Shown here: piece after piece, positions 3,779-46,559 of the stretch | How positions within the stretch are numbered: position 1 is the first letter of the stretch | Layout of the letters: every line of letters starts with the position of its first letter | From: Solirubrobacterales bacterium | GTDB taxonomy: Bacteria; Actinomycetota; Thermoleophilia; Solirubrobacterales; 70-9 | Assembly (NCBI GenBank): GCA_035266685.1 | Contig: DATFMX010000018.1 | Coordinates: 1-60,969, forward strand | Length of the DNA stretch: 60,969 bases | Reading direction: 5' to 3' | Program-made: the position numbers and the translations under genes | Notes under the pieces: generated by a model | What the model was told of the DNA's origin: nothing | Seen by the model: the letters and a program-made list of their open reading frames with translations, nothing else | Database searches by the model: none

Positions 3779-3825
3779 CCCATAATGGTAGCAAAACGGT
3801 AGCACCAGCCTGCGGCCGGCCGAAC

Positions 3826-9537: not shown

Positions 9538-9576
9538 TCCGGGGGATACCCCAGCGCCTCATATGTCCGGGGGATT
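9538..9576 (+). promoter_or_regulatory. Tandem TCCGGGGGAT boxes (28-nt spacing) at the 5' end of the DUF3494 gene
   Basis: TCCGGGGGATA lies at 9538..9548 and TCCGGGGGATT at 9566..9576, inside TTAGTCTCTCCGGGGGATA-N17-TCCGGGGGATTGTGCTTCTTGGAG. This is the partner of the 6991..7047 block. Confidence 0.5.
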
Positions 9577-16114: not shown

Positions 16115-16147
16115 CGGAACGGAGTATAAACATGCCGGTATATAGCG

Positions 16148-22217: not shown

Positions 22218-22236
22218 CTGTCCGGCGGGCGGGCGC

Positions 22237-23756: not shown

Positions 23757-23777
23757 GGTCGGTTATTGTGACAGTGC

Positions 23778-24943: not shown

Positions 24944-24958
24944 GATCCCGCCGCTGAG

Positions 24959-30849: not shown

Positions 30850-32969
30850 CCGAGCTTCACCCTTACGACCCGTGAGATGCGAAGCCGTCGCTGGCGAATC
30901 GTCAAGCGCACCTTCCTGACACCCGGCCGCGCCATGCGGGAGGCCTTCGTCAGCCGTAGTCTTAAGCGGGTCCTGCCCGAACGCTTGACGCGCTTCGCGC
31001 CCCGCGCCAGAACGATCCTCCGGTGCTTACCGCGAACCCAAAGCCGGCCGACGAGCCGCCCGCGCGCGGGCGGCGCGACGACCGCCACGACTGCGTTCCT
31101 CCTCGGCCTGACCGCGACACGGAGCAGCCGCAGCCGCGCCTTCCGCGTTCGCCCCTTCGGCAGCGGAACCGAGCTCGGCGGAGTCTCGCGCGTCAGCCGC
31201 GGTTGGCTGGGGAGCGGGCAGCTGGAGCTGTCGCATGCCGCGCCCTCCGGTTCTTTCGGGAAGCCACCTTCGAGCCGGGCCGCGTAGATGTCCCTGCCTT
31301 CTCCGTCCACGTCGGCTGGGACGAGATCGGCGTTCGTCGCGAACAGCGCCGTCCGGCCGTCCCTGCTGGCCCCTGCGAAATCCGATTTCAACGGCAGATA
31401 GCTCGGCGAGATCAGGCCGAGCGCGCCATGCGCGTACTCGTAGACGTCGAACTCGGCGTTGGTGTCTTCGGGGAGCAGCGACTCCTCGGTCATGAAGAAG
31501 ACGCGTTCCCCGCTGTCGTCGATCGCGTGGTAGGGCCGCAGGTCTCCGGCTTCGAATTCGTGCTGGTTGAGCGGGGAAGGCGCGGTGATGCCCACCGGAA
31601 AGGCGCCGTTTCCGCCGATCGAACCCGCCGAGACTCTCGTCAGCTTTTCTTCGCCCGCGTCGTAGAGATAGGCGTCCGCCTGACTGTCCGTGTCGCTCGG
31701 GAGGACCTGCGCGGAGGTGGCGAAGAGCGCCCTGCCGCCATCGGGCGTCAACTGGATCTGACGTTCTTCCAAGACGGTCGGGATCGATCCTTCGGCGACC
31801 AACCGCTCGCCGCCCCCGTCGGCGACGAACAGCTTCTGACCGGTCGCCGATTCGCCGGGCAGCAGTTCGCCGGAGCCGGTGAAGTAGACCCGGTCGCCGA
31901 CGTCCGCCGGGCTGGCGTCGGCGCTGTCGACGGAGCCGGTCGCCGACGGCGCGCCGCCGCTGACGAGGGTCAGCTCGCCGCTTTCGACGTCGTATCTGTA
32001 CAGGTCCCGCTTGGAGTCTTCGTCGGCGTCGGTCAGCTGCTGCGTCGTCGTCATGTAGGCGACGCTGCCCGACCGGTTGGCGCCGGCGAAGCTGACGTTG
32101 GCGGCGGCGTTGCAGTCGACCCGGGCGCAGCGAGAGGAGGAGATCTCAGTAGTCGTGCCGTCTTCCAGGTTCCGGAGGTAGACGCTTTCGGTCCCGTTGC
32201 AGGAAGCCGGCACCGAGAAGAACACACGGTCACCCGACGCTGCCATCCCGTTGGACTTGGAGATCTTGGCGCCGCAGGTCGAGAGCAGGGCGCCGCCGGT
32301 GTCGACATCGACGAGCTGAAGGCCGCCGTTCCTCCAGGCGTAGATCGACTTCCCCGTCGTCCTCCCGGCGTCCGCGGGGAGCAGGTGCTCCCGGGTGTCG
32401 AAGACGATCCGGCCACCGTCGCTCGAGATGCCCGCGAAGCCCCGGTATTCGAGGGGCGCCGCGATGCCAACGGGAGCGACGAGCTCGAGTGGCTGCCCGG
32501 TAACGTCGCGGTACAGTGCGGTTTCGCCTTCCGGCGGCCCGTCAGGGGTGAGCGGCACCAGCGAAGCCCACAGCCTGGTCTGTAGATCCTCGCTGAAGGA
32601 CACAGGCCTGATCGGCTCGAACAGCGTAAAGATGTTGGTCGATTCGATCTTGAAGGCGGGCCCGAGCGGCGTGTTGAGCCAACCCGACGAGCCGCGCGCG
32701 GAGGCGTCATATCCGAAGAGCGCCCCGGAAGGGCTTCCCGGCGGAGGCCCCACGGTCGAGTATGTGACCCTGTCGCCGTCCTCACCGAGCGGGCGGTTGC
32801 CCAGCACCCGCGAGGACGACGGGTTCTTGAGGGTGGTCAACTCCCAGACGCGTCCGTTCGCCGGCACCGCGGCCCCAACGTCAGCAGTCGGCGCAGCGGA
32901 CACCGCGACCGCCACGGTTAATGCGAGTACGACGTTCCTTACTCCCCTTGCCACAGAAAGGCCTCCCAT
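30846..32969 (-). CDS. Secreted PD40/TolB-like beta-propeller repeat protein with an Arg-rich C-terminal module
   Basis: The start is set at MGGLSVARGVRNVVLALTVAVAVSAAPTADVGA (ATG 32969). Repeats are ISSDGGRIVFDTREHLLPADAG, LTPDGGRALFATSAQVLPSDTDSQADAYLYD, IDDSGERVFFMTEESLLPEDTNAEFDVYEY and ASRDGRTALFATNADLVPADVDGEGRDIYAA. The tail is ...RGAKRVKRSGRTRLRLRLTKASRMARPGVRKVRLTIRQRRLRISRVVRV. Confidence 0.7.
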   Translation of the reverse strand: MGGLSVARGVRNVVLALTVAVAVSAAPTADVGAAVPANGRVWELTTLKNPSSSRVLGNRPLGEDGDRVTYSTVGPPPGSPSGALFGYDASARGSSGWLNTPLGPAFKIESTNIFTLFEPIRPVSFSEDLQTRLWASLVPLTPDGPPEGETALYRDVTGQPLELVAPVGIAAPLEYRGFAGISSDGGRIVFDTREHLLPADAGRTTGKSIYAWRNGGLQLVDVDTGGALLSTCGAKISKSNGMAASGDRVFFSVPASCNGTESVYLRNLEDGTTTEISSSRCARVDCNAAANVSFAGANRSGSVAYMTTTQQLTDADEDSKRDLYRYDVESGELTLVSGGAPSATGSVDSADASPADVGDRVYFTGSGELLPGESATGQKLFVADGGGERLVAEGSIPTVLEERQIQLTPDGGRALFATSAQVLPSDTDSQADAYLYDAGEEKLTRVSAGSIGGNGAFPVGITAPSPLNQHEFEAGDLRPYHAIDDSGERVFFMTEESLLPEDTNAEFDVYEYAHGALGLISPSYLPLKSDFAGASRDGRTALFATNADLVPADVDGEGRDIYAARLEGGFPKEPEGAACDSSSCPLPSQPRLTRETPPSSVPLPKGRTRKARLRLLRVAVRPRRNAVVAVVAPPARGRLVGRLWVRGKHRRIVLARGAKRVKRSGRTRLRLRLTKASRMARPGVRKVRLTIRQRRLRISRVVRVKLG

Positions 32970-33051
32970 GAGCGCCGAATCCCCCGTCGACGAGAAGCGG
33001 AAAACTACCACAACCCAAGAACTCACAGGAATATTAGGAGAGGTTCAAGAA

Positions 33052-33080
33052 GTAACTGACAGTACCAATATGACTGTTAC
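33052..33080. promoter_or_regulatory. AT-rich divergent promoter region with GTAACTGAC / ACCAATATG boxes
   Basis: GTAACTGACAGTACCAATATGACTGTTAC lies in the 160-bp gap between the minus-strand propeller operon and ACP1. Related boxes recur at 41469..41475 and 43571..43611. Confidence 0.35.
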
Positions 33081-33128
33081 ACATATGCGGGCGCGGCGAC
33101 TCCGTTTTCGGTTAGCCTGACGCGCAAT

Positions 33129-33392
33129 ATGATCGTGGGGGTCGAGGAGATGGTGGGGCAGCTGATGGGAATCATGGAACGCGAGATCGGTGATGTGAGC
33201 CCTTCGCGCGACGATTTCGGCACCGACTCGATCGCCCGCCTGAACCTCGACTCGCTCGGCCTGATCGGCTTTCTCGCCGCGGTGGAAGAGGAGTTCCGGA
33301 TCGAATGGGATCCTGACGTGGACATCGACGTGCTCCGCTCCTTCGACGCGATGGCTCGCTACGTGCTCGAGCAGAGCTCGGATCCGTCTTGA
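33129..33392 (+). CDS. Free-standing acyl/peptidyl carrier protein (ACP1)
   Basis: 87 aa. The phosphopantetheine site context is ARLNLDSLGLIGFLAAVEEEF (DSL motif). Confidence 0.75.
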   Translation: MIVGVEEMVGQLMGIMEREIGDVSPSRDDFGTDSIARLNLDSLGLIGFLAAVEEEFRIEWDPDVDIDVLRSFDAMARYVLEQSSDPS

Positions 33393-34564
33393 CCGACGAA
33401 GCGGTTTCGGATCGGCGGGGGATGCACCTGGTCAGTGGCGCGACCGGGTTCCTCGGCGCAGCCCTGGTGCTCGAGCTGCTCGAGCGGACCGAGGGCGATG
33501 TCGCCTGCCTGGTCCGCCCGAGTCACGATGCCGAGCGCGCCCGGTCCCGGCTCACCGAGGCGCTCAAACGCGCCTTTGCGCTCTACGGCCGAACCGACCT
33601 GCTGCCGGCGATCGAAGAGCGCTGCCGCAGCGTGCCCTTCGATCTGCGCGAGGAAGACGACGCAGCCGCGGAGCGACTGCCGGCCGGGATCGCCGAAGTC
33701 TGGCACTCGGCCGCTTCGCTGAGGTTCAAGCAGAAACAGCGCGAGAAGATCTTCGAGCAGAACGTCGAGGGCACCCGTCGCATGCTGCGGCTGGCCACCG
33801 ACGCCGGGGCCGAAGCCTTCAACTACGTGAGCACGGCCTACGTGGCGGGGACGCGGAGCGGCCTGGTCCCGGAGGAGCCGGCGCGCGACCCGAGCGTCGC
33901 CCACAACGCCTACGAGGAGAGCAAGGTCCGCGCCGAGACGCTGGTCGACGAGTGGGACGGGCTGCACACCCGGATCATGCGGCCCAGCATCGTCATCGGT
34001 CACACCGGGACGTTCGCGGCGATCTCCAATACGGGGCTTTACGGCTTCATCCTCGGCGTGCAACGCGCGCGGGAGGAGGTCGAAGGCCGCAAGCTCGGCG
34101 GCTTCCTGGCGCACCGTCAGATCCGGCTGCGCGGCGAAGGCGAGGCGCCGATCAACCTGATCCCGGTCGACGTCGTCGCCGGCAACGCCGTGCGGATCGC
34201 CCAGTCGCCGAGCGAGGCCGGCGTCTTCCACCTCGCCAACGCGACGCCGCCGAGCGCGGCGGAGGTCGGCCGCGTCGTCTTCGGCGCGCTGGGCATGGCC
34301 GAGCCGCGCTGGGTCGAAGACGACGACGAGTTCACCCTGATCGACGAAAAGCTCGACGAGCAGCCCCGCACCGACTTCTTCCGCACCTACCTCTCCCGCG
34401 ACAGGGTCTTCGACCTCGCCAACACCGACGCGGCGCTCGGCGAGCAGGCCTCGACGATCTCCTTCGACGACGGAGAGCTGGCGCCCTACATCGAGTGGTA
34501 CCTGGGGATGGTCAAGCAGGTGCGCGACGAGCAGCGGGCTCGGCTCGGCGTCAGCCCGGGCTGA
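33389..34564 (+). CDS. Thioester reductase-type SDR (NAD_binding_4 / fatty acyl reductase-like)
   Basis: HLVSGATGFLGAALVLELLER (TGxxG), YVSTAYV and NAYEESK (YxxxK) are present. The TTG start overlaps the ACP1 stop (TTGA). An alternative ATG lies at 33422. Confidence 0.8.
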   Translation: MTDEAVSDRRGMHLVSGATGFLGAALVLELLERTEGDVACLVRPSHDAERARSRLTEALKRAFALYGRTDLLPAIEERCRSVPFDLREEDDAAAERLPAGIAEVWHSAASLRFKQKQREKIFEQNVEGTRRMLRLATDAGAEAFNYVSTAYVAGTRSGLVPEEPARDPSVAHNAYEESKVRAETLVDEWDGLHTRIMRPSIVIGHTGTFAAISNTGLYGFILGVQRAREEVEGRKLGGFLAHRQIRLRGEGEAPINLIPVDVVAGNAVRIAQSPSEAGVFHLANATPPSAAEVGRVVFGALGMAEPRWVEDDDEFTLIDEKLDEQPRTDFFRTYLSRDRVFDLANTDAALGEQASTISFDDGELAPYIEWYLGMVKQVRDEQRARLGVSPG

Positions 34565-36017
34565 TCAGCTCCGACCAGAGCCGCTCGGCGGAGCGGCGGT
34601 CGATCTTGTTCTGACCGATCCGTGGAAGGGCGCGGTCGGCGACGATGACCCGGCGCGGTCCGCGGCTTGCCCCGAGCGCCTCGTCGAGCGCCGCCTTCAG
34701 CTCGCCGGCGTCGAGGTCACCGCCCTCGACCGGGCGGACGATCGCGCCGAGGTCCTCGATGCCGCCGGGCAGGTCGACGCGCACGGCGACCGCCTCGAGC
34801 ACGCCGTCGAGGCCGACGCACGCCTCCTCCACCTCGGTCAGGTACACGGTCGTGCCGCCTTTCATCACCGCATCCTTCAGCCGGCCGACGATCCAGTACT
34901 TGCCCGTCTCGTCGCGTCGAGCCAGATCGCCGGTCTTCAGCCACGGCCCGGAGAAGAGCGCCGCGTTGGCCTCGGCGTTGTCGTAGTAGCCGTCCGAGAT
35001 CGACGGGCCGCGGACCTCGATCTCGCCCTCGCCCTCGCCGGCCACCAGCTCGCCGTTCTCGCTCCGCAGCCTGACCTGCGCCAGGTCCGGCCGGCCCACC
35101 GCCTGCGTCGTCCTCCCCCGCTCGTCGGTGTCCCCGACCATGCAGGCGAAGGTCGTCTCGGTGAGCCCGTAGCAGTTGAGCACGAGCGCGTCGAAGCGCT
35201 CCATGAAGCGAGCGTGCGTGGTCGCCGAAATCGGGCCGCTGCTGTTGACGAACAGCGGCCGCCGTTCGAGCTCGCCGGGCTTCGACGCCCGCAGGAGCAG
35301 CTCATAGAGGGCCGGCACCAGCACGACCTGATCGATCTCGTGACGGTCGAGTTCGGCCCAGTAGCCCCTCGCCGTCGAGAGGTCGAGGCGCGGCAGGACG
35401 ATCAGCTCAGCGCCGAAGGCCGCCGACCAGAGGTAGTGCAGGGCGAGGACTCCGAAGCCCGAGAGCCGCATGCTCGAGCCGATGCGCGCCGGGGGGTCGC
35501 CGCGGAAACCGGTCAGCTCGCCGGCGGACGCGTGGAGCGCCGCCACCAACCGGTCGTGCTGAAGGGCGATCCCCTTGGGCGCAGCGGTGCTGCCGGAGGT
35601 GTAGGCGAGCATCGCGGCTCCCGGCGGCAGCTCCGGCCGATCGGGCGCAGGAGCCGGGTCGGCGGCCTCCACCGTCAGCCGGTCGCCGATCGCGACGACG
35701 GCGTCCGCCCGACTGTGCGCGAGGACCCCGGCGCGAATCGCATCGCCCCACTCCGGATCGACTAGGACCGGTACCGCTCCGAGCTGCCACATCGCCAGCA
35801 GGGTGGGCAGCGAGTCGGGGTGGTCGACGAGCACCGTCGCCACCCGCGAAGCGGAGCCGACGCCGGCGTCGCTCAACTCGCCGGCAAGCGCATCGGATCG
35901 CTCGATCAGATCGCTCCAGGTCAGCGCCAACCCTTCGAATGGAGGTAGGGCGAAGGTGACTGCCGGCTCCGATCCCCTGTCGGCCGCGTTGGCTCTGTAC
36001 ATGTCTAGGAGATTCAT
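34551..36017 (-). CDS. Adenylate-forming acyl-CoA/acyl-carrier-protein ligase (ANL superfamily)
   Basis: The start is set at MNLLDMYRAN (ATG 36017). Motifs are AYTSGSTAAPKGIAL, NCYGLTETT, WLKTGDLARRDETGKYWIVGRLKD and the terminal IGQNKIDRR lysine. Confidence 0.85.
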   Translation of the reverse strand: MNLLDMYRANAADRGSEPAVTFALPPFEGLALTWSDLIERSDALAGELSDAGVGSASRVATVLVDHPDSLPTLLAMWQLGAVPVLVDPEWGDAIRAGVLAHSRADAVVAIGDRLTVEAADPAPAPDRPELPPGAAMLAYTSGSTAAPKGIALQHDRLVAALHASAGELTGFRGDPPARIGSSMRLSGFGVLALHYLWSAAFGAELIVLPRLDLSTARGYWAELDRHEIDQVVLVPALYELLLRASKPGELERRPLFVNSSGPISATTHARFMERFDALVLNCYGLTETTFACMVGDTDERGRTTQAVGRPDLAQVRLRSENGELVAGEGEGEIEVRGPSISDGYYDNAEANAALFSGPWLKTGDLARRDETGKYWIVGRLKDAVMKGGTTVYLTEVEEACVGLDGVLEAVAVRVDLPGGIEDLGAIVRPVEGGDLDAGELKAALDEALGASRGPRRVIVADRALPRIGQNKIDRRSAERLWSELISPG

Positions 36018-36063
36018 CGTCAGCCGGCGATCTGACCCTACCAACGCTGATAGCCTCACGCAG

Positions 36064-37323
36064 GTGAGGCGAGGGAATTTTTCGTCACTGGTCGAGGAGG
36101 GGCGGGTGCATCGGGATGTGTACGTCGATCCCGATGTGTTCGAGGCCGAGATGCGGCGGATATTCATGCGTACCTGGATATACGTCGGGCACGACAGTGA
36201 GATTCCCCACGCGGGTGACTACAAGCGAACCTTCATCGGTACCGAGCCGGTCATCCTTACCCGCGGAAGCGACGGCGCCCCAAGTGTGGTGGTCAACCGC
36301 TGCAGCCACCGCGGCGCCGCGATCTGCCTGCTACCGAGGGGCAACGCAAAGGGATTCCGCTGCCAGTTCCACGGCTGGACCTTCGGCCTCGACGGCGAGC
36401 TGCTCGGCGTTCCGTACTCCGAGGAAGAGGTGGACAAAGACGAGCTGTCGCTGGCGTCCGCAAAGGTCGAGTCATACCGCGGCTTCATCTTCGCCTCGTT
36501 CAACCCGGACGTCCCGCCGCTGACCGATCACCTGCGCGACGTTCTCCCCTACATCGATCGGTTCGTCGAACACGCCGGCGACTACGCGCTGCAGGTGTCA
36601 CCCGATGCCAACGAGGTCGTCTACGACGCCAACTGGAAGATGCAGCTGGAGAACAACGTCGATGGATACCACCTGAGCTTCACCCACCAGTCCCTATTCG
36701 GAGTCCTGCAGCAGCGAACCGGCAAGCAGCCGCGCTACGTGACCGGGTCCTCGGACGGCGAAGCCAGGGTCGAGGCGTTCTCCAACGGCCATGCGGTGAT
36801 GGACCTCCGCTCGGTGGCAACCGATGTGCTGCGCGAACGGCTCGGCATCGTTCCGGGCGCCCCGCCGCCGGACGCGGACCTCGACGCCTACTTCGGAATC
36901 GAGGGCGCCGAGGACCTCTACCTGGCCAGCACCGGGCCTCCGGTGAACATCTCGATCTTCCCCAACCTCAACCTCGGCAGCATCAACATCTGCGAGGTCC
37001 ACCCGCTGGCGGTGAACCGCACCCGTGTGGTCCTGCGACCGCTGCTGCTCGACGGCGCCCCACCCGGCATCAACCGGACCCGCCTGCGCTACCACGAGAT
37101 CGGCTCCGGGCCGGCCGGCTTCGTGCAACCGGATGACCTCGAGATGTTCGAACGGGTCGCCCTCGGCCTCGCCTCGGAGGACGTCGAGTGGATCCAGATG
37201 ACCCGGGGGCGGGAACGCGAGACCGAGGTCGACGAGACGCACCGCTACAGCCACGTCTCCGACGAGACCCCGCAACGCGGTCAGTACCGCTGCTGGCGCG
37301 AGATGATGGACGGCGACGCTTGA
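36064..37323 (+). CDS. Rieske non-haem iron oxygenase, alpha subunit
   Basis: The Rieske cluster motifs are CSHRGAAIC...CQFHGWTF. The mononuclear iron motif is ENNVDGYHLSFTHQ. The start is uncertain: GTG 36064 is chosen, but ATG 36001 would overlap the divergent ligase start. Confidence 0.85.
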   Translation: MRRGNFSSLVEEGRVHRDVYVDPDVFEAEMRRIFMRTWIYVGHDSEIPHAGDYKRTFIGTEPVILTRGSDGAPSVVVNRCSHRGAAICLLPRGNAKGFRCQFHGWTFGLDGELLGVPYSEEEVDKDELSLASAKVESYRGFIFASFNPDVPPLTDHLRDVLPYIDRFVEHAGDYALQVSPDANEVVYDANWKMQLENNVDGYHLSFTHQSLFGVLQQRTGKQPRYVTGSSDGEARVEAFSNGHAVMDLRSVATDVLRERLGIVPGAPPPDADLDAYFGIEGAEDLYLASTGPPVNISIFPNLNLGSINICEVHPLAVNRTRVVLRPLLLDGAPPGINRTRLRYHEIGSGPAGFVQPDDLEMFERVALGLASEDVEWIQMTRGRERETEVDETHRYSHVSDETPQRGQYRCWREMMDGDA

Positions 37324-37799
37324 CGCCGCGCTCGTCCTTCCCGGAGGCCTACGAGCTGCTGGCCCGCGAGGCGCACCTGCTCGACGACCGCGACTTCGAG
37401 GGCTGGCTGGACCTCTTCACCGAGGACTGCCTCTACTGGATGCCGGTCGACCCACTGGCCGAGGACGGCGGGCTGCGGCTCAACGTCTTCTACGACGACA
37501 AGGCGAAGATGAAGGACCGGATCGCCCGGCTCAGCTCGGGCTCCGCCTACACCGAGGAACCGATCTCGCTGACCGCTCGCACGTTCTCAGCCGTGCAGCT
37601 CGAGAACGGCGGCGAGGAACCCCTGGTCGTGAGGAGCAACTTCCAGATGATCGCCTACCGCAGCGGCGACCAGCGCCTGCTCGGCGGGCGCTACCGGCAC
37701 CGCCTGCTCCGAGAGGACGGCGCCCTCCGGATCTCAGAGAAGCGCGTCACCCTGCTCGGCTCCGACGCTCCCCAGCGACCGATGACCTTCCTCTTCTGA
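37320..37799 (+). CDS. Ring-hydroxylating oxygenase beta subunit (NTF2/SnoaL-like fold)
   Basis: EAYELLAREAHLLDDRDFEGWLDLFTEDCLYWMP...FYDDKAKMKDRIARL is the typical beta-subunit pattern. TTG 37320 overlaps the alpha-subunit TGA (TTGA). Confidence 0.75.
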   Translation: MTPRSSFPEAYELLAREAHLLDDRDFEGWLDLFTEDCLYWMPVDPLAEDGGLRLNVFYDDKAKMKDRIARLSSGSAYTEEPISLTARTFSAVQLENGGEEPLVVRSNFQMIAYRSGDQRLLGGRYRHRLLREDGALRISEKRVTLLGSDAPQRPMTFLF

Positions 37800-39053
37800 G
37801 CCGCCGCCCGCAGGGCCGGGCGCCTGCCGGCCCGTCTCCTCCTGCGGCTCCAGCTGAGACCTCAGCTCCCACCTGCCGAGGCTCCTGATATGGACCTCGT
37901 CGGGGCCGTCGACGAAGCGCAGCGTACGGGCCTGCGCGTAGAGCTCGGCCAGCGCCGTGTCCTGACTCAACCCGGCCGCGCCGTGCGCCTGGATCGCCCG
38001 GTCGAGGACGTCGAGGGCGACCTTCGGGGCGGCGACCTTGATCGCGGCGACATCCCGCCGGGCGCCCCCGCCGCCGAACTCGTCCATCGCCCAGGCGGCC
38101 TTGAGGCCGAGCAGGCGGGCCTGCTCGATCTCGATCCGCGAGCGCGCGATCCATTCCCTGATCACGCCCTGGTCGGCGAGGCGCGTGCCGAACGTCTCCC
38201 GGCTCGCGACCCGCTCGCACATCGTTTCCAGCGCCCGCTCGGCCTGGCCGATCGCGCGCATCGAGTGGTGGATGCGGCCCGGGCCGAGCCGGCTCTGGGC
38301 GAGGCCGGACCCGTCCCCCTCGTACTGGAGCAGGTTCTCCGCCGGCACCCTGACGTCGTTGAAATGGATTTCGCCGTGGCTGATCGGCTGCTGGTAGCCG
38401 AGCACGCTCATCGCCCGCACGACCTCGACCCCGGGCGTGTCGAGCGGAATCAGGATCATCGACTGCTCCGGGAAGGGCTTGGCGTCGGGGTCGGTCACGC
38501 CGACGAAGATGCAGAGCTTGCAGGCCTCGCGGGCCGCCCCTGTGGAGAACCACTTGCGCGCGTCGATCACGTACTCGTCGCCGTCGCGCACGATCCGCGC
38601 GCTGATGTTGTGGGCGTCGGAGCTGGCCACGGCGGGCTCCGTCATCGCGAAGCACGAGCAGATCTCGCCCTCGATCAGCGGGATCAGCCACTTCTCCTGC
38701 TGCTCCGGCGTGCCGCAGTCGGCCAGCACCGAGATGTTGCCGGCGTCGGGCGGGTGGCAGTTGAAGACCTCGGGGCCGAGCATGCTGCGACCCATCTCCT
38801 CGCAGACCGGCGCGAACTCGACGTTGGAGAGCCCGAACCCACCCCACTCGGTGTGCTGCAGGAAGAGATTCCACAGCCAGGCGCGCCGCGCCTTGCTGCG
38901 CAGCTCCTCCATCACCGGAGGGCGGCAGGACGGGTCGCCAGATTCGGCTATCTCCCGGCGGTAACGCTCCTCGTTCGGGATCACCTCCTGATCCATGAAC
39001 TCCCGCACTTCGCGAGTCAGCTTCGCCGATCTGTCAGAGAGTTTGAAATCCAT
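37734..39053 (-). CDS. Acyl-CoA dehydrogenase family protein (ACAD10/11 / FadE-like)
   Basis: CFAMTEPAVASSDAHNI, GDEYVIDARKWFSTG, LGPGRIHHSMRAIGQAERALE and IQAHGAAGLSQDTALAELYAQARTLRFVDGPDEVH are present. Its 3' end overlaps the convergent beta-subunit gene by 66 nt. Confidence 0.85.
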   Translation of the reverse strand: MDFKLSDRSAKLTREVREFMDQEVIPNEERYRREIAESGDPSCRPPVMEELRSKARRAWLWNLFLQHTEWGGFGLSNVEFAPVCEEMGRSMLGPEVFNCHPPDAGNISVLADCGTPEQQEKWLIPLIEGEICSCFAMTEPAVASSDAHNISARIVRDGDEYVIDARKWFSTGAAREACKLCIFVGVTDPDAKPFPEQSMILIPLDTPGVEVVRAMSVLGYQQPISHGEIHFNDVRVPAENLLQYEGDGSGLAQSRLGPGRIHHSMRAIGQAERALETMCERVASRETFGTRLADQGVIREWIARSRIEIEQARLLGLKAAWAMDEFGGGGARRDVAAIKVAAPKVALDVLDRAIQAHGAAGLSQDTALAELYAQARTLRFVDGPDEVHIRSLGRWELRSQLEPQEETGRQAPGPAGGGSEEEGHRSLGSVGAEQGDALL

Positions 39054-39082
39054 TTCCTACCAGCTCCGTTCCGCTTGGATGT

Positions 39083-40537
39083 TCATGCAACTCCGTCGAT
39101 TCCGGCGAGCCAGCGGGCGTAGCCGACCGCGTCCTCGCCGTCGTATTTGGCGAGGATCGTCAGCTTCTCCGCCTCGATCGAGCCCTCGGCATGGATCGCC
39201 AGCACCGCCTGGTAGCCGCCGAATTCACCGGTCGTCAGGTCGCTGATCATGCGCAGGACACGCAGCCGCTCCTCGCCGTCGGCCCCGCCGGCGGCCTCCA
39301 GGTAACGCTTCAGGTCCGGTCCGTACTCGTCATGGTCGAGGTCCTCCGGCGCCGGATACGTCACCAGCAGGGCGCCGGCCATGTCCTGCAGGTATTGCAT
39401 CGCCGTGTGCAGCCCCTGTGCGAACTGCAGCTTGGCGATGTTGACCGGCAGCGGGTGGGGGATCGCCACGCCGTCGACGATCGCGCAGCGCCGCGCCGAG
39501 TCGTGGGTGAGGATCCGCAGCGTTTCGGCGTAGGAGACGAGCCAGGAGAGCTTCTCGCGCACGTGACCGGCGCGCTCGAGCCCGTTGACCCGCGCCGCCA
39601 GCAGGCCGCTGCCGACGAGCGCGTCGACCAGCGGCAGCTTGTAGGAGATCGCGGTGAAGCGATGGAATTCGACGAAGCCGCGCGCGAGGTCGCCGGCGTG
39701 CTCGGTCTCACCGGCGAGGAAGACGCGCTCGGCCGGCACGAAGACGTCGTCGAAGAGGGTCGATGTCTCGGTCATCTTGCGCCCCGCCGATATCGGGTGC
39801 TCCTCCTCGCTCTTGCCGTGCGGCGACATGTAGGGGCTGGCGACCAAGGTCAGGCCCGGGGTGTCCAGGGGGATCGCGAAGGAGACGGCGTAGCTCTCGT
39901 CGCCGGACCCCAGCGCACGGGTCGGCAGGACGACGAGCTCGTTCGCGTTGACCGAGACCGAGGTGTGCGCCTTGGCGCCGCGCACGACGATTCCGTCCTC
40001 GCGGTGCTCGACGATCCGCAGGTAGGCATCGGGGTTCGGCTGCTGGGAGGGGCCGAGCGAGCGGTCTCCCTTGAAGTCCGTCTGCGCGACGCAGACCGCC
40101 AGGTCGTGCTCTCGCGCCCCCTCGTAGAACGCCTCGATCCGGCCGGCGTACGGCTCTCCCAGCCGCTCGCGCATCGCCAGCAGCGCGAACATCGCGTCCG
40201 TGCCGATCTCCTTGATCAGCGGCGGCAGGGTCTTGCCGGCGCGCGTCCCGGCCTCGATCAGGGCGCTGCGGGCGAGCAGGTCATCGGCGCTCCTCGGGAC
40301 CTGGAAGTAGCGGCTGTAGCCGTCGGGGGCGACGGCCAGCTCGCGGTGCTCGTCGCTCTCGGCCATCTCGTAGTCGAGCGCGGCGTGGTCCACCGCATGG
40401 CGGAGGACAGGGTGGGTGGTGACGTCCTCGACCAGCTCGCCCCGGTAGTAGACACGGCGGCCGTCGCGCAGGCTCTCGCGGTACTGGGCCGGCGAGCGCA
40501 ACCGCGTGGCCGCGTCGATCTCGCCGGCCTGGGTCAT
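39083..40537 (-). CDS. HpaB-family (4-hydroxyphenylacetate 3-hydroxylase-like) flavin-dependent monooxygenase component
   Basis: The start is set at MTQAGEIDAAT (ATG 40537, ATGA overlap with the hydrolase stop). The 484-aa length and segments such as YRESLRDGRRVYYRGELVEDVTTHPVL and VAQTDFKGDRSLGPSQQ fit the HpaB/AbfD fold. The Cys ligands of the AbfD Fe-S cluster are not evident. Confidence 0.7.
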   Translation of the reverse strand: MTQAGEIDAATRLRSPAQYRESLRDGRRVYYRGELVEDVTTHPVLRHAVDHAALDYEMAESDEHRELAVAPDGYSRYFQVPRSADDLLARSALIEAGTRAGKTLPPLIKEIGTDAMFALLAMRERLGEPYAGRIEAFYEGAREHDLAVCVAQTDFKGDRSLGPSQQPNPDAYLRIVEHREDGIVVRGAKAHTSVSVNANELVVLPTRALGSGDESYAVSFAIPLDTPGLTLVASPYMSPHGKSEEEHPISAGRKMTETSTLFDDVFVPAERVFLAGETEHAGDLARGFVEFHRFTAISYKLPLVDALVGSGLLAARVNGLERAGHVREKLSWLVSYAETLRILTHDSARRCAIVDGVAIPHPLPVNIAKLQFAQGLHTAMQYLQDMAGALLVTYPAPEDLDHDEYGPDLKRYLEAAGGADGEERLRVLRMISDLTTGEFGGYQAVLAIHAEGSIEAEKLTILAKYDGEDAVGYARWLAGIDGVA

Positions 40538-41409
40538 GCGGGCCTCGAGGCTGCGGAGCGGTCCTCGACTTCGGTGACGAACTCCTGCACTATTCGTTCG
40601 AACTCCTCCGTCTGCTCGACGTAGGGAGCGTGGCCGCAGCGCTCGATCACCTCCACTCTCGCGTCGGGGATCATCCCTGCCAGGTCTTCCATCGACGAGC
40701 GGCCGATGTTGAAGTCGTCGTCGCCGGTGAACAGCAGCACCGGGCATTTCAGGTTGCGCAGCTTCTCGGGATCGTTGTCCGCCTGCAGGCCGCCTTCCAG
40801 GTTTGAGCGCAGCTGCGCCTTCGAGTGAAGCGCGAGGAAGCGGTCGCGCAGCGCCAGGTAGGCCGCCGAGCCGCCCTTCGCAATCGTCCGGTCGCCGATC
40901 ACGAACGGATAGCTGGCGGCGAACAGCCCCGCCGGGCCGCCGGCCTCGAGCGCCGCAAGCCACGTTTTGAGGTGAAGGTTGCGGCGATTCGACTCGTACG
41001 GACTGATCGCCGGGCCACAGAGGATCAGGCCCTTGACGCGATCCGGGTGCCGAACCGCGAAGTCGCGAGCGAACATGGTCGAGAAGGAGACGCCAAGGAG
41101 GTAGGTCTGCTCGATGCCGAGCCCGTCGAGCAGCGACTTCAGGTCGTTGAGGTGATTCTCATATGAGCCGTCGCCCATGGTCGAGGCGCCCTGGTTGCGA
41201 ATGTCATAGGAGAGGACGGTGTTCGACTCGACCAGCTGCTCGGTGAAGTGCCGCCAGGCGGTGCTCACCACGAAGACGCTGGAGAGGATCGTCAGCCACG
41301 GCCCCTGACCGCGGTGCTCGTAGTAGATCTCCACCCCGTCCTCGGTCCGGTGGAGGTCCTGATTGCCGTCATAGCTGGCGTCCCATGACTCGATTTCCTG
41401 AATGTCCAC
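40534..41409 (-). CDS. Alpha/beta-fold hydrolase
   Basis: The nucleophile elbow is LLGVSFSTMFA (GxSxS). HPDRVKGLILCGP is present, and the C-terminal ERCGHAPYVEQ contains the catalytic His context. Confidence 0.8.
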   Translation of the reverse strand: MDIQEIESWDASYDGNQDLHRTEDGVEIYYEHRGQGPWLTILSSVFVVSTAWRHFTEQLVESNTVLSYDIRNQGASTMGDGSYENHLNDLKSLLDGLGIEQTYLLGVSFSTMFARDFAVRHPDRVKGLILCGPAISPYESNRRNLHLKTWLAALEAGGPAGLFAASYPFVIGDRTIAKGGSAAYLALRDRFLALHSKAQLRSNLEGGLQADNDPEKLRNLKCPVLLFTGDDDFNIGRSSMEDLAGMIPDARVEVIERCGHAPYVEQTEEFERIVQEFVTEVEDRSAASRPA

Positions 41410-41491
41410 GTTACGTCAGCTCCTTCCGCCTGGTACAAAGTGGCCGCATTGCACGGGTGGGAATCCTGAACTGACGGTGGGGAGGCTTTCG

Positions 41492-41761
41492 ATGGTGGAG
41501 AAAAGCGTTCGTGAGGACGTCCGTAGGATGATCGAGCAGCTGGCGCCGGTGCGCGACGTCGAGATCGCACCGTCCAGCGAACTCGGAGTCGACCTCGGGT
41601 ACGAGTCGCTGCGGCTGATGGAGCTGGCGACGGCGTTCGAGGACCACTTCGGGCTCGACGAGATCACCGAGGACGACGCCGCCGAAGCTGACACCGTCGG
41701 CGAGGTGGAAGACCTGATCGTGCGTCTTGTCAGCGAGCAGCAAGTCGGCTCCCAAGTCTGA
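41492..41761 (+). CDS. Free-standing acyl carrier protein (ACP2)
   Basis: MVEKSVREDVRRMIEQLAP...SSELGVDLGYESLRLMELATAFEDHFG has a carrier-protein Ser context. A GGGGAGG lies 7 nt upstream of ATG 41492. Confidence 0.7.
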   Translation: MVEKSVREDVRRMIEQLAPVRDVEIAPSSELGVDLGYESLRLMELATAFEDHFGLDEITEDDAAEADTVGEVEDLIVRLVSEQQVGSQV

Positions 41762-41763
41762 GG

Positions 41764-43551
41764 TCAGCTCTCCCGCCGCGGGTACTCGGCGAGCAGCTCC
41801 ACATCGTCTTCGGCGACCATCGACTTACAGAGGCGCCGCTGGATCTTGCCGCTCGTCGTCTTCGGAACCGTGCCCCTGGCACACAACCCGATCCAGTAGA
41901 GCGGCAGGTCGAGATCCTCGGCGACGCGCTTGCGCACCGCCGCCATGATCTCCTCGTATTCCTCGTCCTTCTCGGGCAGATCGACCTCCATCAGGATCGC
42001 GATGCGGATCTCGCCGTCGACCTCCTGCTCGAAGGCGGCGCTGCAGTGACCGCGCAGCAGCGGGCTCGCGGCCTCGGCGCTGAACTCGATGTCATGCGGG
42101 TAGATGTTGCGGCCGTTGACGATGATCAGCTCCTTGATCCGGCCGACGACGAACAGCTCGCCGTCGACGATCGCGCCTAGATCGCCGGTCCGCAGGTACG
42201 ACCTGTCGGGCTCGCCCTGTAGCCGTGCGCCGAAGAACTGGGCCGTCTCCTCGGGGTCGCGCCAGTAGCCCTGCGCCACCCCCGGTCCGGCAAACCAGAT
42301 CTCGCCCACCTGCCCGTCCTCGCAACGACTCAGCTTCTCGGTGTCCGCGACGACCAGCTCGTTGCCCTCGAAGGGAGCGCCGGATCCGACCAGGACCTTT
42401 GCCGGGCCGCCGCCCTTCCAGGTCTCGACCCGTCCGTCCTCGAGCGCCCGTTCGTCGACCTTCAGCGTCATCGGCTCCCTCTCCCTGTCGCTCGAGGTGA
42501 CGATCAGCGTCGCCTCGGCAAGGCCGTAACCGGTCTGAAAGGTGTCGCGTTTGAACCCGCAGGGGCCGAACTTCTCGCAGAAGGCGTCGATCGTCTCGGC
42601 GCGGATCGGCTCGGCGCCGTTGAACGCGACCTCCCAGTCGGAGAGGTCGAGTCGTTCGCACGTCTCCTGGTCGATCCGGCGAACGCAGAGGTCGTAGGCG
42701 AAGTTCGGGCCGCCGCTGGTCGTCACCCTGTACTTCGTCATCGCTTCCAGCCAGCGGGCCGGGCGCTTGATCACGGTGAGCGGCGACATCATGATGCAGT
42801 GCCCACCGGCATGGACGGGCTGCAGGACGCCGGCGATCAGGCCCATGTCGTGGTAAGGCGGCAGCCAGCTGAGCCCCTTGCGCAGGCCGTTCGGGACGTG
42901 GCCGAGGGCGTCGGTGATCAGGTCCGAGTTGCCCATCAGGTTCTCGTGCGAGAGCACGACGCCACGCGGATCGCGGGTCGATCCGGACGTGTACTGCAGG
43001 AAGGCCATCTCGCCCAGGTCCGGCCTGGCGACCTCCACCTCGCCGCCCTCGGCGGCCGTATCGGTGGCGATCCACTGCACTTCGGTCAGCGGGCCATCGC
43101 TGAGGAACGACTCCGCCGCGTCGGACTCCGCTGCCTGCTTGATGAAGTCGATGGTGAGCACGGCGCTGATCTCGGCGTCGGCGGCGATCGCCTGCAATCG
43201 CGGCAGCGTGCGATGCAAGCGGTTCGGCTGCGGCGGCGGCGCCGAGACGGCGACGATGCCCGCCTGAAAGCAGCCGTAGAGGGCGCACACGTAGTCGATC
43301 CCCGGCGGAAACAGCAACAGCGCGCGGCCGGTCGAGGGCATCTTCTCGAGCAGCAGTGCCGCGACGTCCTGTGCCTTCTGGTGCAGCTGCGAGAACGTCA
43401 TGGTCCGGTCGTCCTCGCCGTGCTCGATCAGCCTGAACGCAAGTTCGTCCGGCATCTCCCCGGCACGATGCTCGAGCGCCGCGCCGAAGCTCATCTCCGA
43501 TACCGAGGTAGGCCGACCCACGGCTAGCCCCTCGGCTGATTGTCCCCCCAT
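41764..43551 (-). CDS. Fatty acyl-AMP ligase (FAAL / FadD32-like) type adenylating enzyme
   Basis: 595 aa. Motifs are FLQYTSGSTRDPRGVVLSHENLMGN, YGLAEATL and LRTGDLG...GRIKELIIVNGRNIYPHDIE. An AAGGGGA lies upstream of ATG 43551. The FAAL-versus-FACL distinction was not verified. Confidence 0.8.
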   Translation of the reverse strand: MGGQSAEGLAVGRPTSVSEMSFGAALEHRAGEMPDELAFRLIEHGEDDRTMTFSQLHQKAQDVAALLLEKMPSTGRALLLFPPGIDYVCALYGCFQAGIVAVSAPPPQPNRLHRTLPRLQAIAADAEISAVLTIDFIKQAAESDAAESFLSDGPLTEVQWIATDTAAEGGEVEVARPDLGEMAFLQYTSGSTRDPRGVVLSHENLMGNSDLITDALGHVPNGLRKGLSWLPPYHDMGLIAGVLQPVHAGGHCIMMSPLTVIKRPARWLEAMTKYRVTTSGGPNFAYDLCVRRIDQETCERLDLSDWEVAFNGAEPIRAETIDAFCEKFGPCGFKRDTFQTGYGLAEATLIVTSSDREREPMTLKVDERALEDGRVETWKGGGPAKVLVGSGAPFEGNELVVADTEKLSRCEDGQVGEIWFAGPGVAQGYWRDPEETAQFFGARLQGEPDRSYLRTGDLGAIVDGELFVVGRIKELIIVNGRNIYPHDIEFSAEAASPLLRGHCSAAFEQEVDGEIRIAILMEVDLPEKDEEYEEIMAAVRKRVAEDLDLPLYWIGLCARGTVPKTTSGKIQRRLCKSMVAEDDVELLAEYPRRES

Positions 43552-43570
43552 TTATTTCCCCTTGCCGCTG

Positions 43571-43611
43571 GTAACTGACTGGAGCGTCGGCTTATATATA
43601 GCACCAATGTG
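43571..43611. promoter_or_regulatory. AT-rich divergent promoter region (FAAL / P450) with GTAACTGAC and ACCAATGTG boxes
   Basis: GTAACTGACTGGAGCGTCGGCTTATATATAGCACCAATGTG. The same two box sequences occur at 33052..33072. Confidence 0.35.
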
Positions 43612-43637
43612 CAAACCAGGTGTAACCAATTCGATCT

Positions 43638-44867
43638 ATGTTGGACCCATTGACTATGTCACCACAACGTGATGTGTTGAGCTTCAACCCGCATGACGCC
43701 TCGCTGTTCGTCGCCGAGCGGCGCGAAACTGTCTTCGCACACCTCCGCGAGTGTGACTCACTGTATGTGGATAGTAACTGTGATGTACCGATTTACTCAC
43801 TAGTTCGGTACGCGGATGTGGAGCGGGCATACAAGGAACCGGACGTCTTCAGCCCCTGTGCCGGGCTCACCCTGGATGCGTTCGATCCCGCCAGCTCCGA
43901 CTCGCTGAGCAAGATGCTCGAGACCGCCCCGCCGGATCGTCACCGGGCGCTGAGGAACGCGATGCAGGCAGGCTTCCGGGGAGATGCGCTGGACGAGATC
44001 CGCGCTGACATCGAGGGTCGGCTCGGACGCTTCCTCACCGCAGCGACGGGCGGTGGTGCGGTGGAGTTCGTCGGCGCTTTCGCGCAAGACGCCGGCACGG
44101 CGATGATGACCTCGCTGCTCGGCCTGGCCGCGGAGGAGCGGGAGCGGCTCGCTCCGGCCCTGCGAGCGATCGGCGAGGTCGACTTCGGCGCGTCTCCCGA
44201 ATCGGCATCCCGCAGGCAGCGAACCGAATTCCTGCTGCTGCGCGGGCTCGCCCGCGCAGTGCGCGCCGACCGCAAGGCGGGTCGCTCCCGCGGGCTGATC
44301 GGTCTGCTTCTGGCGGCGGAGATCGACGGGCAGCCGCTGAGCGACCAGGAGGTGGCGCTGAACTGCTTCAACGTGGCGATGGCCGGCACGGGCGCCAGCC
44401 AGCACACGCTCGCCGGGGCCGCCGCCGTCTGGGCTGAGCATCCGGCTGCCCTCGCCGGCGCCGGCGAGGATCTAAAACTCAGACGGCGGCTCGTCGATGA
44501 GACGCTGCGCTGGCTGAGCCCGGTTATCCACCTGACGCGCATCCTCACCGCCGAGGTCGAGATCTCGGGCCAGCGGCTTCCAAAGGGCGCCGGGGTCTGC
44601 CTCTGGAACATCTCCGCGAACCGCGACGAGAGCGTCTTCGAGGACGCCGCCGGCTTCGATCCCGATCGCCCGCCCGCCCGCAACCTCGCCTTCGGCGCCG
44701 GGCCCCAGTACTGCCTCGGGGCCGAAATCGTGCGCGCCCAGCTCGACGCTCTGCTGACCGGCCTGGCGCGGCACGGAGCGCGCTTCGAGCTCGCCGGGCC
44801 ACCCGGGTGGATGGCGTCGAACGCGATCGCCGGCGTCGAGTCGCTCCCCCTGCGCGTCCGCCGGTAG
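43638..44867 (+). CDS. Cytochrome P450
   Basis: The haem-thiolate loop is FGAGPQYCLGAEI. The I-helix-like segment is NVAMAGTGASQHT. ETLRW (ExxR) is present. Confidence 0.9.
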   Translation: MLDPLTMSPQRDVLSFNPHDASLFVAERRETVFAHLRECDSLYVDSNCDVPIYSLVRYADVERAYKEPDVFSPCAGLTLDAFDPASSDSLSKMLETAPPDRHRALRNAMQAGFRGDALDEIRADIEGRLGRFLTAATGGGAVEFVGAFAQDAGTAMMTSLLGLAAEERERLAPALRAIGEVDFGASPESASRRQRTEFLLLRGLARAVRADRKAGRSRGLIGLLLAAEIDGQPLSDQEVALNCFNVAMAGTGASQHTLAGAAAVWAEHPAALAGAGEDLKLRRRLVDETLRWLSPVIHLTRILTAEVEISGQRLPKGAGVCLWNISANRDESVFEDAAGFDPDRPPARNLAFGAGPQYCLGAEIVRAQLDALLTGLARHGARFELAGPPGWMASNAIAGVESLPLRVRR

Positions 44868-46432: not shown

Positions 46433-46559
46433 CGCCTCGCAGTGTAGAGCGACGATCGCGGTCCGGGTGCGGGCACCCCGCAGAGCGACCCCGGCTGAGC
46501 GTCACCGCCGTCGGCGGTCAATAGCCTGCCTGCCGACCAACTCGACCCGAAGGGGAACC

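Follow-up and report, generated by a model that had tools for sequence, protein, structure and literature searches.

A candidate orphan thiotemplate cluster without a condensing enzyme in an uncultured Solirubrobacterales-like actinobacterium

Introduction

What could a set of carrier proteins, acid-activating enzymes and oxygenases make when nothing around it joins acyl units together? The question is raised by contig DATFMX010000018.1 of the Solirubrobacterales assembly GCA_035266685.1, whose 60,969 nucleotides are called the window below. The original prediction for this DNA had singled out eleven contiguous genes at 33027-44867 encoding two acyl carrier proteins (ACPs), two adenylating enzymes, a reductive release enzyme and three classes of oxygenase, with no condensing enzyme anywhere in the window. 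We find that these genes belong to a larger conserved unit. The best explanation of our data is that 20325-44867 is one orphan biosynthetic cluster of an uncultured Solirubrobacterales-like actinobacterium, working on carrier-protein or CoA thioesters. Going one step further, we lean, without great confidence, towards an orphan thiotemplate cluster that makes an exported, oxygenated lipid-like metabolite. The evidence comes from conservation of the unit across loci, from the residues of its carrier proteins and enzymes, and from the recurrence of five of its genes beside polyketide and peptide assembly genes elsewhere.

Open reading frames (ORFs) of the window (GC 0.64-0.75) were called by third-position GC and length. 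Domains were assigned by Pfam on the larger ORFs of the 61 kb and by comparison with NCBIfam models and PDB entries, and loci were compared by tblastn. Related loci are designated by L numbers.

A conserved unit of 19 genes

Pfam confirmed all eleven genes of the original prediction at their places and with their domains. The borders proposed for them were too narrow: genes of 20325-24943 travel with those for the Rieske oxygenase, the ACAD and the HpaB-like protein in other architectures. The conserved unit runs from 20325 to 44867 and holds 19 genes (Table 1), 33027-44867 being its right-hand half. The left part (20325-33026) encodes a dihydroxy-acid dehydratase (IlvD), a crotonase (enoyl-CoA hydratase, ECH), a phosphopantetheinyl transferase (PPTase), a glyoxalase I, a hydroxylase of the Fe(II)/2-oxoglutarate (2OG) oxygenase class and an MMPL operon. 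The PPTase, the crotonase and the MMPL operon, which had been remarked on as upstream neighbors, are there and are members of the unit as well.

Four contigs that carry homologues of the HpaB-fold protein at 73-94% identity were opened: L001 (132 kb), L083 (120 kb), L085 (157 kb) and L005, a 61-kb contig from a Solirubrobacterales metagenome-assembled genome (MAG). All four keep the eleven genes in the same order and orientation, at protein identities of 63-95% and between differing flanks, which bears out the idea that the set is co-conserved. All four also continue past ACP1 into orthologues (49-78% identity) of U867 and U726, two secreted proteins of the left part. The order of the left arm (IlvD, ECH, PPTase, glyoxalase, 2OG, MMPL, U867, U726, ACP1 and the thioester reductase, TR) is kept in L086 (NCBI GCA_037025585.1), L089, L097 and L098 and in the fragments L096, L099 and L100; in L088, IlvD and ECH are moved and inverted, still adjacent to each other. 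Since the flanks vary between loci, the block appears to be retained as a unit. As genes beyond the cytochrome P450 differ between the window, L001 and L085, we place the right border at the P450; the genes left of IlvD in L089 are unlike those of the window, which puts the left border at IlvD.

Packing is tight. Read from the sequence, 4-nt overlaps indicative of translational coupling join many neighboring genes across the unit. The originally described overlaps are present between ACP1 and TR (TTGA), between the Rieske subunits (TTGA) and between the alpha/beta hydrolase and HpaB-like genes (ATGA); further ATGA junctions couple PPTase to crotonase, U867 to the MMPL gene and U726 to U867. 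The gap between ACP2 and the fatty acyl-AMP ligase (FAAL) gene is 2 nt, not the 3 nt given earlier.

An alternative is that independent modules merely lie side by side and were co-inherited through kinship of the sampled genomes. The modules would be IlvD/crotonase/PPTase/glyoxalase/2OG, the MMPL operon, a split set of adenylating enzyme, ACP and TR resembling a carboxylic acid reductase (CAR), the Rieske pair, and FAAL-ACP. We consider this quite unlikely. The block stays intact while its flanks change, overlaps couple many of its genes, and L084, L087 and L093 intermix genes of the two arms. Even rearranged loci keep genes of different modules together: L107 unites 2OG, MMPL, ACAD, FAAL, both Rieske subunits and the adenylating ANL enzyme, and L106 unites 2OG, P450, ECH and IlvD. 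The juxtaposition account draws support from the faster evolution of U867 and U726 (47-78%) than of the enzymes, from the housekeeping-like IlvD, and from the PKS (polyketide synthase)- and NRPS (nonribosomal peptide synthetase)-type architectures, which do not have FAAL, ACP2, the hydrolase, P450, ACP1 or TR. It draws support, too, from the origin of the complete window-type copies, all from one narrow lineage (1 of 80 GTDB loci, a Solirubrobacterales MAG); the window-type synteny is seen among close relatives, and common descent could account for part of it.

Table 1. Genes of the conserved unit, in order along the window
Feature	Position	Strand	Basis
IlvD, dihydroxy-acid dehydratase, 630 aa	20325-22217	+	NCBIfam equivalog 1076 bits (cut-off 710); TIGR00110 770 bits (cut-off 618)
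Crotonase/enoyl-CoA hydratase (ECH)	22237-23073	-	Pfam ECH_1; NCBIfam PRK08272 above cut-off
Sfp/HetI-type PPTase	23070-23756	-	Pfam ACPS; NCBIfam HetI 78 bits, below cut-off (370)
Glyoxalase I (GloA)-like VOC protein, 128 aa	23778-24164	+	Pfam Glyoxalase
WelO5/SadA-like Fe(II)/2OG oxygenase	24161-24943	+	Pfam WelO5; H-A-D triad
MMPL-family RND transporter, 1096 aa	24959-28249	-	Pfam MMPL; in all window-type loci
U867, secreted, no known family, 867 aa	28246-30849	-	no Pfam or NCBIfam match; signal peptide; Arg/Lys-rich C-terminal tail
U726, secreted or anchored repeat protein, at most 726 aa, start uncertain	30846-33026	-	no Pfam match; Arg/Lys-rich C-terminal tail
ACP1, free-standing carrier protein	33129-33392	+	Pfam PP-binding 23 bits, just above cut-off (20.8); LDSL Ser
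TR, stand-alone thioester reductase (extended SDR)	33389-34564	+	Pfam NAD_binding_4 1e-36; TIGR01746; MxaA 4u7w
ANL adenylating enzyme, acyl/aryl-CoA-ligase-like	34551-36017	-	Pfam AMP-binding and AMP-binding_C
Rieske oxygenase alpha subunit	~36064-37323	+	Pfam Rieske and Ring_hydroxyl_A; CxH...CxxH and DxxHxxxxH motifs
Rieske oxygenase beta subunit	37320-37799	+	Pfam Ring_hydroxyl_B; SnoaL-like
ACAD10/11/LvaC-type flavoenzyme	37734-39053	-	PDB ACAD11 8v3u 1e-117
AbfD/HpaB-fold flavoprotein	39083-40537	-	Pfam HpaB_N and HpaB
Alpha/beta hydrolase, GVSFS nucleophile elbow	40534-41409	-	Pfam Abhydrolase_1/6; best PDB matches esterases
ACP2, free-standing acyl carrier protein	41492-41761	+	Pfam PP-binding 36 bits; NCBIfam acyl_carrier; GYESL Ser
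FAAL, fatty acyl-AMP ligase	41764-43551	-	PDB FAALs 7r7e (441 bits), Legionella 3kxw, FadD32, FadD23, FadD28
Cytochrome P450	43638-44867	+	Pfam p450; FGAGPQYCLG heme loop

Carrier proteins, loading and release without a condensing enzyme

The motif Ser of each carrier protein is invariant in all orthologues found: in 8 of 8 aligned rows for ACP1 (the window and seven orthologues) and in 6 of 6, window included, for ACP2. The alignments count the window as a row, and L001 and L002 are identical. With a PP-binding fold and a conserved Ser in a (D/E)SL motif, both are predicted to be the free-standing carriers that had been proposed.

The assignment of the FAAL was also upheld. All its top PDB matches are FAALs (with hits of 441 and 377 bits), its alignment with 7r7e is colinear over residues 22-589 without large gaps and passes through the FAAL-specific insertion region, and two NCBIfam FAAL subfamily models score 405 and 361 bits, both below their cut-offs. 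The protein is closer to FAALs than to acyl-CoA ligases. The ACP2 gene is convergent with the FAAL gene in every locus, and this conserved adjacency suggests that FAAL and ACP2 act as a pair. The second of the two activating enzymes that had been claimed is CoA-ligase-like. As the ANL protein has this character and is paired with ACP1 by adjacency alone, we only infer that it loads ACP1. In L107, its orthologue (67-68%) shares an operon with ACAD, FAAL and Rieske genes.

The enzyme originally described as reductive is a thioester reductase resembling the R domain of MxaA (2.6e-20). It scores 110 bits with TIGR01746, below the cut-off of 213, and carries GATGFLG and AYEESK (YxxxK) motifs. Fold, motifs and similarity to known R domains all point to an R-domain-type thioester reductase of the NRPS/PKS kind.

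Pfam detected no ketosynthase (KS), acyltransferase (AT), condensation (C) or thioesterase (TE) domain on the larger ORFs of the window, and tblastn with the PKS, C-domain, TE, APH-kinase, ALDH and aminotransferase proteins of related loci gave no match there. A type I PKS or NRPS assembly line, which would bring KS/AT or C/A domains, can be set aside for the window; such domains are present in L084, L087 and L092-L095. Thus, the lack of a condensing enzyme in the 61 kb is real and is a trait of this architecture only, since sister loci have KS, PKS or C domains.

How does this set compare with known systems? In mycobacterial FAAL-carrier-MmpL lipid pathways and in the isonitrile lipopeptide locus (Rv0096-0101/ScoA-E), a FAAL feeds a free-standing ACP, and an Fe/2OG oxygenase, reductive release and an RND/MMPL protein take part. 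The window encodes the same ingredients: a FAAL with a free-standing ACP, a 2OG oxygenase, an R-domain-type reductase and an MMPL protein. Unlike those loci, it lacks a PKS/NRPS and a ScoD-type thioesterase, its 2OG oxygenase is WelO5/SadA-like whereas that of the isonitrile locus is TauD-like, its reductase stands alone, and its Rieske, ACAD10/11-type and AbfD-like enzymes have no counterpart there. An adenylating enzyme, a carrier, a thioester reductase and an Sfp-type PPTase are also the elements of CAR (A-T-R) enzymes and of terminal R domains of NRPSs such as MxaA. The window has the first three as separate proteins, with a CoA-ligase-like adenylating enzyme. The set may work like CAR; it is not a member of that family (NF041592, 42 bits against a cut-off of 1300). 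In sum, the cluster resembles FAAL-ACP-MmpL, isonitrile and CAR/R-domain systems in logic and is a member of none. As in the original prediction, which did not recognize the genes as a characterized pathway, we found no characterized pathway that matches the cluster, and literature searches for the gene combination returned nothing relevant.

An oxidative cassette recurs beside polyketide and peptide genes

Five genes form a core cassette: those for the Rieske alpha and beta subunits, the ACAD10/11-type enzyme, the AbfD/HpaB-like protein devoid of Fe-S ligands, and the WelO5/SadA-like 2OG oxygenase. The MMPL operon and the ACP1-TR-ANL unit lie between its members in the window and divide it into two arms. 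Five other architectures also contain the cassette, in the company of type I PKS genes, NRPS-type C/A/T genes or a FabH-like KS gene. Identities to the window are 58-72% (Rieske subunits), 60-70% (ACAD) and 44-74% (HpaB-like and 2OG proteins).

One of these copies is in L084, where orthologues of the ACAD (71%), Rieske alpha (73%), Rieske beta (65%), HpaB-like protein (74%), crotonase (67%), glyoxalase (73%) and 2OG (65%) are tightly interleaved; the locus also holds an IlvD gene (84%), together with two T-C proteins, an A-T protein, an ANL enzyme, a TE, a PPTase and an MFS transporter. By tblastn, no orthologue of the window's own PPTase was found in L084, although a PPTase-family gene (4PPT_N and ACPS) is present. 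In L087, from an Alphaproteobacteria MAG, IlvD, ACAD, Rieske alpha, Rieske beta, HpaB, 2OG and ECH are contiguous and co-directional, with an MFS gene and a stand-alone C domain. In L092, a type I PKS (KS-AT-DH-ER-...) and a second KS follow directly after the genes for HpaB, both Rieske subunits, ACAD and 2OG. L094 and L095 have L092-like cassette genes with an APH-family kinase, an ALDH and a PKS. L093 combines a FabH-like KS fragment, an aminotransferase, 2OG, HpaB, ECH, ACAD, both Rieske subunits and a carrier protein. Crotonase orthologues (58-89%) accompany the cassette in L084, L087 and L093, and an MMPL or MFS exporter accompanies four of the six architectures (window type, L107, L084 and L087). 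The cassette occurs in at least two taxonomically labeled groups, the Solirubrobacterales and an Alphaproteobacteria MAG; its carriers are almost all uncultured.

These loci suggest a bolder interpretation, which we advance only tentatively and regard as a possibility short of being probable: the cassette would be an undescribed, horizontally mobile tailoring or building-block pathway that plugs into FAAL-, PKS- or NRPS-type thiotemplate systems. It would use the gamma-leaving-group elimination of the ACAD10/11/LvaC clade on a thioester and, in the window, yield a new MMPL-exported class of oxygenated lipids, possibly targeting dihydroxy-acid dehydratase (DHAD). If so, this would be the first biosynthetic role for that clade, and it would explain what a large flavoenzyme family, at present mis-annotated as 4-hydroxybutyryl-CoA dehydratase, does.

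Two flavoenzymes from families without a known biosynthetic role

The protein first called an ACAD does belong to this family, and its active-site residues refine the name to ACAD10/11/LvaC type. It shares about 50% of its residues with the ACAD domain of mouse ACAD11, and RLGPGRIHHSMR and VDGPDEVH match the mouse protein residue for residue. All four ACAD11 active-site residues, R626, H634, R637 and the catalytic D753, are kept, within conserved RLGPGRIHH(S/C)MR and DGPDEVH motifs. According to PMC12440821, these residues set apart the ACAD10/11/LvaC clade, the enzymes that eliminate phosphate from 4-phosphoacyl-CoA. The two hallmarks that place the window protein in the clade are a catalytic Asp in place of Glu and the R...H(C)MR phosphate-binding helix.

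The complete ACAD10/ACAD11/LvaAC system is not encoded, as its partner APH-type kinase was not found in the window. The only variant to have one is L094, in which an APH-family phosphotransferase (2833-3864, minus strand) lies within the cassette and adjoins the HpaB-like and Rieske genes; it is the kinase partner expected of an ACAD10/11/LvaC-type enzyme. The window thus shares the clade residues with ACAD10, ACAD11 and LvaC and differs from those enzymes and LvaA in lacking the kinase, in a context that looks biosynthetic rather than one of beta-oxidation, and in a thioester that may be carried on an ACP.

The second flavoenzyme had been predicted to be an HpaB-type monooxygenase. It has the fold and the Pfam domains of both AbfD (1u8v; also Nmar 6vjr) and HpaB-type enzymes (2yyg; SgcC 4oo2). 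Its PDB scores are higher for 4-hydroxybutyryl-CoA dehydratases (220 bits for AbfD and 213) than for TtHpaB (169 bits), and SgcC-type enzymes also score lower than AbfD. The TDxKGDR motif and H292 are shared with AbfD. We take C99, C103, H292 and C299 of AbfD (1u8v) to be the [4Fe-4S] ligands and Y296 and E455 to be catalytic. Of these, only H292 is retained; at the positions of C99, C103, C299, Y296 and E455 the protein has P, E, Y, A and L. The residues that we assume to bind the phenol in TtHpaB (2yyg), R100, Y104 and H142, correspond to L107, I111 and V150. A genuine AbfD is excluded by the loss of Fe-S ligands and catalytic residues, and a genuine HpaB-type phenol monooxygenase by the replaced phenol-binding residues; no flavin reductase was found in the cluster. 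This pattern, with H292 the only one of these AbfD residues kept, holds in 19 of 19 aligned family members, and the motifs are common to cluster-borne and stand-alone proteins. Judged by these residues, the protein is predicted to be a third branch of the AbfD/HpaB fold, outside both characterized families.

This branch is large. Homologues at 73-94% identity are numerous in soil metagenomes, and relatives occur in at least 557 GTDB genome stretches, mostly from Chloroflexota/Tepidiformaceae, Binatia and Actinomycetota. JGI labels the family "4-hydroxybutyryl-CoA dehydratase/vinylacetyl-CoA isomerase", an annotation that is routine in metagenomes and could lead to 4-hydroxybutyrate carbon-fixation cycles being wrongly assigned to Chloroflexota, Binatia and Actinomycetota MAGs. 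At 75 GTDB loci with relatives of 57-76% identity, none of the other cluster genes is present. The neighbors of these stand-alone genes gave no lead to function: no gene family recurs in more than 16 loci, and the recurrent ones look like lineage-specific housekeeping genes. By eye, an ORF resembling a 2-oxoacid dehydrogenase E1 alpha subunit lies about 1.2 kb downstream of the HpaB-like gene in seven clusterless loci (L007, L010, L023, L036, L049, L060 and L070), of which L007 is a Solirubrobacteraceae MAG and several others are labeled Chloroflexota.

A fusion is evidence of a functional link. At L084 10001-11833 (plus strand), the HpaB-like protein carries a glyoxalase I domain at its N-terminal end. 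This Rosetta-stone arrangement suggests that the glyoxalase and the HpaB-like protein may share a thioester or hemithioacetal intermediate. ACAD10/11-type eliminases and Fe-S-less AbfD-like flavoproteins are two enzyme families without a known biosynthetic role.

The oxygenases: four classes rather than three

The original prediction counted three oxygenase classes. Rieske and P450 enzymes were confirmed by Pfam, the HpaB-type monooxygenase failed on its substrate residues, as described above, and the 2OG oxygenase of the left arm adds a fourth class to the cluster.

The Rieske pair is of the alpha/beta type, with both iron motifs intact and a beta subunit present. The alpha ORF opens at 35803, and comparison with orthologues indicates that translation most likely starts at GTG 36064. 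Its best NCBIfam model is benzoate dioxygenase (BenA, 208 bits against a cut-off of 781), with phenylpropionate and anthranilate dioxygenases also matched, all moderately. The best PDB matches are to IadD of Variovorax auxin degradation (7yls and 9o71; 182 bits). Like IadCDE and benzoate-type enzymes, the window pair has an alpha3beta3-type architecture and a SnoaL-like beta subunit; unlike them, it has no nearby reductase or ferredoxin and none of the rest of the iad locus, and the similarity is moderate. The only homologue of the alpha subunit that we noticed in a cultured lineage is WP_119574738.1 of Micromonospora radicis (53% identity); it may lead to a carrier of a related cassette that can be grown in culture.

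As a marker, the 2OG oxygenase is rare: only 48 of 5.8 billion proteins are homologues at E<1e-10. Its AF2 model (pLDDT 93.6) is closest in fold to WelO5 (TM 0.75-0.80) and next to SadA, an N-acyl-amino-acid hydroxylase. In the iron site H144-A-D146, H144 and D146 are invariant. Because this invariant H-x-D stands where WelO5-type Fe/2OG halogenases have HxG, we predict a hydroxylase or oxygenase and reject a halogenase.

A proposed pathway

We next consider how these proteins could work together. An oxygenated, reductively released lipid is our best guess for the product; in the specific order of the steps we have much less confidence. The cluster's Sfp-type PPTase would prime ACP1 and ACP2, and the FAAL would adenylate a fatty acid and load it onto ACP2. 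The oxidative cassette, which we take to be horizontally mobile and which is usually accompanied by the crotonase, would then remodel the acyl thioester, with oxygenation by the Rieske and 2OG enzymes and possibly the HpaB-like protein. Most likely, oxygen would be introduced at or near the gamma position, and the ACAD10/11-type enzyme, the AbfD-like enzyme and the crotonase would then bring about gamma-elimination or double-bond isomerization, and hydration. IlvD and glyoxalase I may supply or detoxify 2-oxo-acid or 2-oxo-aldehyde intermediates, unless IlvD serves in self-resistance. ANL, ACP1 and TR may form a split CAR-like unit that releases an aldehyde or alcohol. The alpha/beta hydrolase might transfer or hydrolyze the acyl group, replacing a condensation or thioesterase function, and the P450 would tailor the product, which the MMPL transporter and the secreted U867 and U726 would export to the envelope. 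If the cluster is biosynthetic in this way, it represents a new way to build an exported lipid-like metabolite without a condensing enzyme, and a testable entry to both flavoenzyme families.

Biosynthesis or catabolism?

Besides the narrow lineage of the complete copies, several observations weigh against a biosynthetic role. The original prediction had found no reductase or ferredoxin partner for any of the oxygenases; we too found no flavin reductase, ferredoxin or ferredoxin reductase in the window, and thus none dedicated to the Rieske oxygenase. Neither Pfam nor tblastn recovered an APH-type kinase, so that the ACAD10/11-type reaction has no known substrate-forming partner in the window. 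In the PDB, ANL matches feruloyl-, fatty-acyl- and oxalate-CoA ligases best and does not resemble NRPS A domains, the alpha/beta hydrolase is generic and esterase-like, and IlvD scores as an ordinary housekeeping enzyme. Since ACAD, ECH and AbfD-like enzymes classically depend on CoA, a large share of the chemistry may bypass the ACPs altogether. Finally, we infer every step of the pathway beyond family assignment.

Some of these points fit a different route, CoA-dependent degradation of an aromatic or a 4-hydroxy/4-oxo carboxylic acid. Here, Rieske attack and CoA ligation would be followed by the action of the ACAD and the AbfD-like enzyme on a 4-substituted acyl-CoA, hydration by the crotonase and cleavage by the hydrolase, and the ACPs, FAAL and TR would be unrelated or accessory. 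In favor of this route, the ANL enzyme is CoA-ligase-like. The Rieske alpha subunit is nearest to catabolic enzymes (IadD and the benzoate, phenylpropionate and anthranilate dioxygenases), this type of ACAD acts in the catabolism of levulinate and 4-hydroxy acids, the hydrolase has weak matches to PcaD, BphD and HsaD, and the version in L087 is simply an operon of seven genes with an MFS transporter, where no carrier protein is seen. Set against this, five independent architectures place the cassette right next to PKS, KS, C, A-T, TE, PPTase and carrier genes, and an exporter-type MMPL gene is embedded in the cluster. The cluster has no thiolase, ring-cleavage dioxygenase, dihydrodiol dehydrogenase or electron-transfer partner, and its VOC protein is of the 128-aa GloA type. 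We therefore judge the catabolic route unlikely.

Specific catabolic pathways fared no better, with the equivalog models for steroid, levulinate and auxin degradation all far below their cut-offs. A steroid cluster would match HsaD, EchA19, CasG and KshA at equivalog level; HsaD scored 54 bits against 400, EchA19 110 against 400 and CasG 123 against 750. Of the levulinate lva operon, an LvaC-like ACAD and a CoA ligase are present; LvaA, LvaB and LvaD are not. Auxin catabolism (iad/iac) was considered since IadD is the best PDB match of the Rieske alpha subunit; none of the other iad genes is present, and the iad set with its thiolase, ADH and amidase does not fit. We also considered the Streptomyces tropolone pathway (trl), with its group A and two-component flavoprotein monooxygenases, PaaY-like thioesterase and no Rieske enzyme, and found no match. 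A gamma-lactone theme based on the hydrolase was dropped as evidence, since the similarity to PcaD is weak and generic. An orphan thiotemplate cluster is therefore the reading that we retain, at the modest confidence stated at the outset.

IlvD and possible self-resistance

Why would a biosynthetic cluster carry an ordinary IlvD? One variant of the biosynthetic reading is that the product inhibits DHAD, and with it branched-chain amino acid synthesis, and that this IlvD is a self-resistance copy. There is a precedent in aspterric acid, whose biosynthetic cluster contains a DHAD copy that gives self-resistance. Window-type loci, L084 and the Alphaproteobacteria locus L087 (65%) all have IlvD next to or within the cassette, so that a full-scoring enzyme is found in three architectures and two phyla. 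The PKS-type loci, as far as they are visible, have no IlvD, and a role in supplying 2-oxo acids is equally plausible, as L093 carries an aminotransferase instead. On this evidence we consider self-resistance very unlikely.

Export and accessory genes

The two secreted proteins, present in every window-type locus, may be envelope partners of the MMPL transporter. Orthologues of U867 are 52-78% identical and those of U726 47-67%, with a faint PD40 match in the L085 orthologue of U726. The MMPL-family gene of L107, beside the 2OG gene of that locus, is shorter (692 aa, 29-34% identity).

In the glyoxalase I-like protein, a reading of the sequence finds H5, E54, H73 and E122, which would correspond to H5, E56, H74 and E122, presumably the metal ligands of GloA in E. 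coli numbering. NCBIfam models score 93 and 78 bits, below their cut-offs of 165 and 120. An orthologue of the P450 (53%) in L106 adjoins 2OG, ECH and IlvD genes.

Neighboring genes

To the left of the cluster lies a copper-resistance island (13433-18043, minus strand) with a multicopper oxidase and a CopC/CopD fusion, which also neighbors the cluster in L086 and L088. Other genes of the window encode an ice-binding-like protein (9563-10816, plus strand) and an arylsulfotransferase (ASST; 52820-54082, plus strand). Just right of the P450 are genes for two beta-propeller (NHL/SGL/PD40-like) proteins (44903-46432, minus strand; 46188-48632, plus strand); the second has an 81% orthologue beside the cluster in L083 only.

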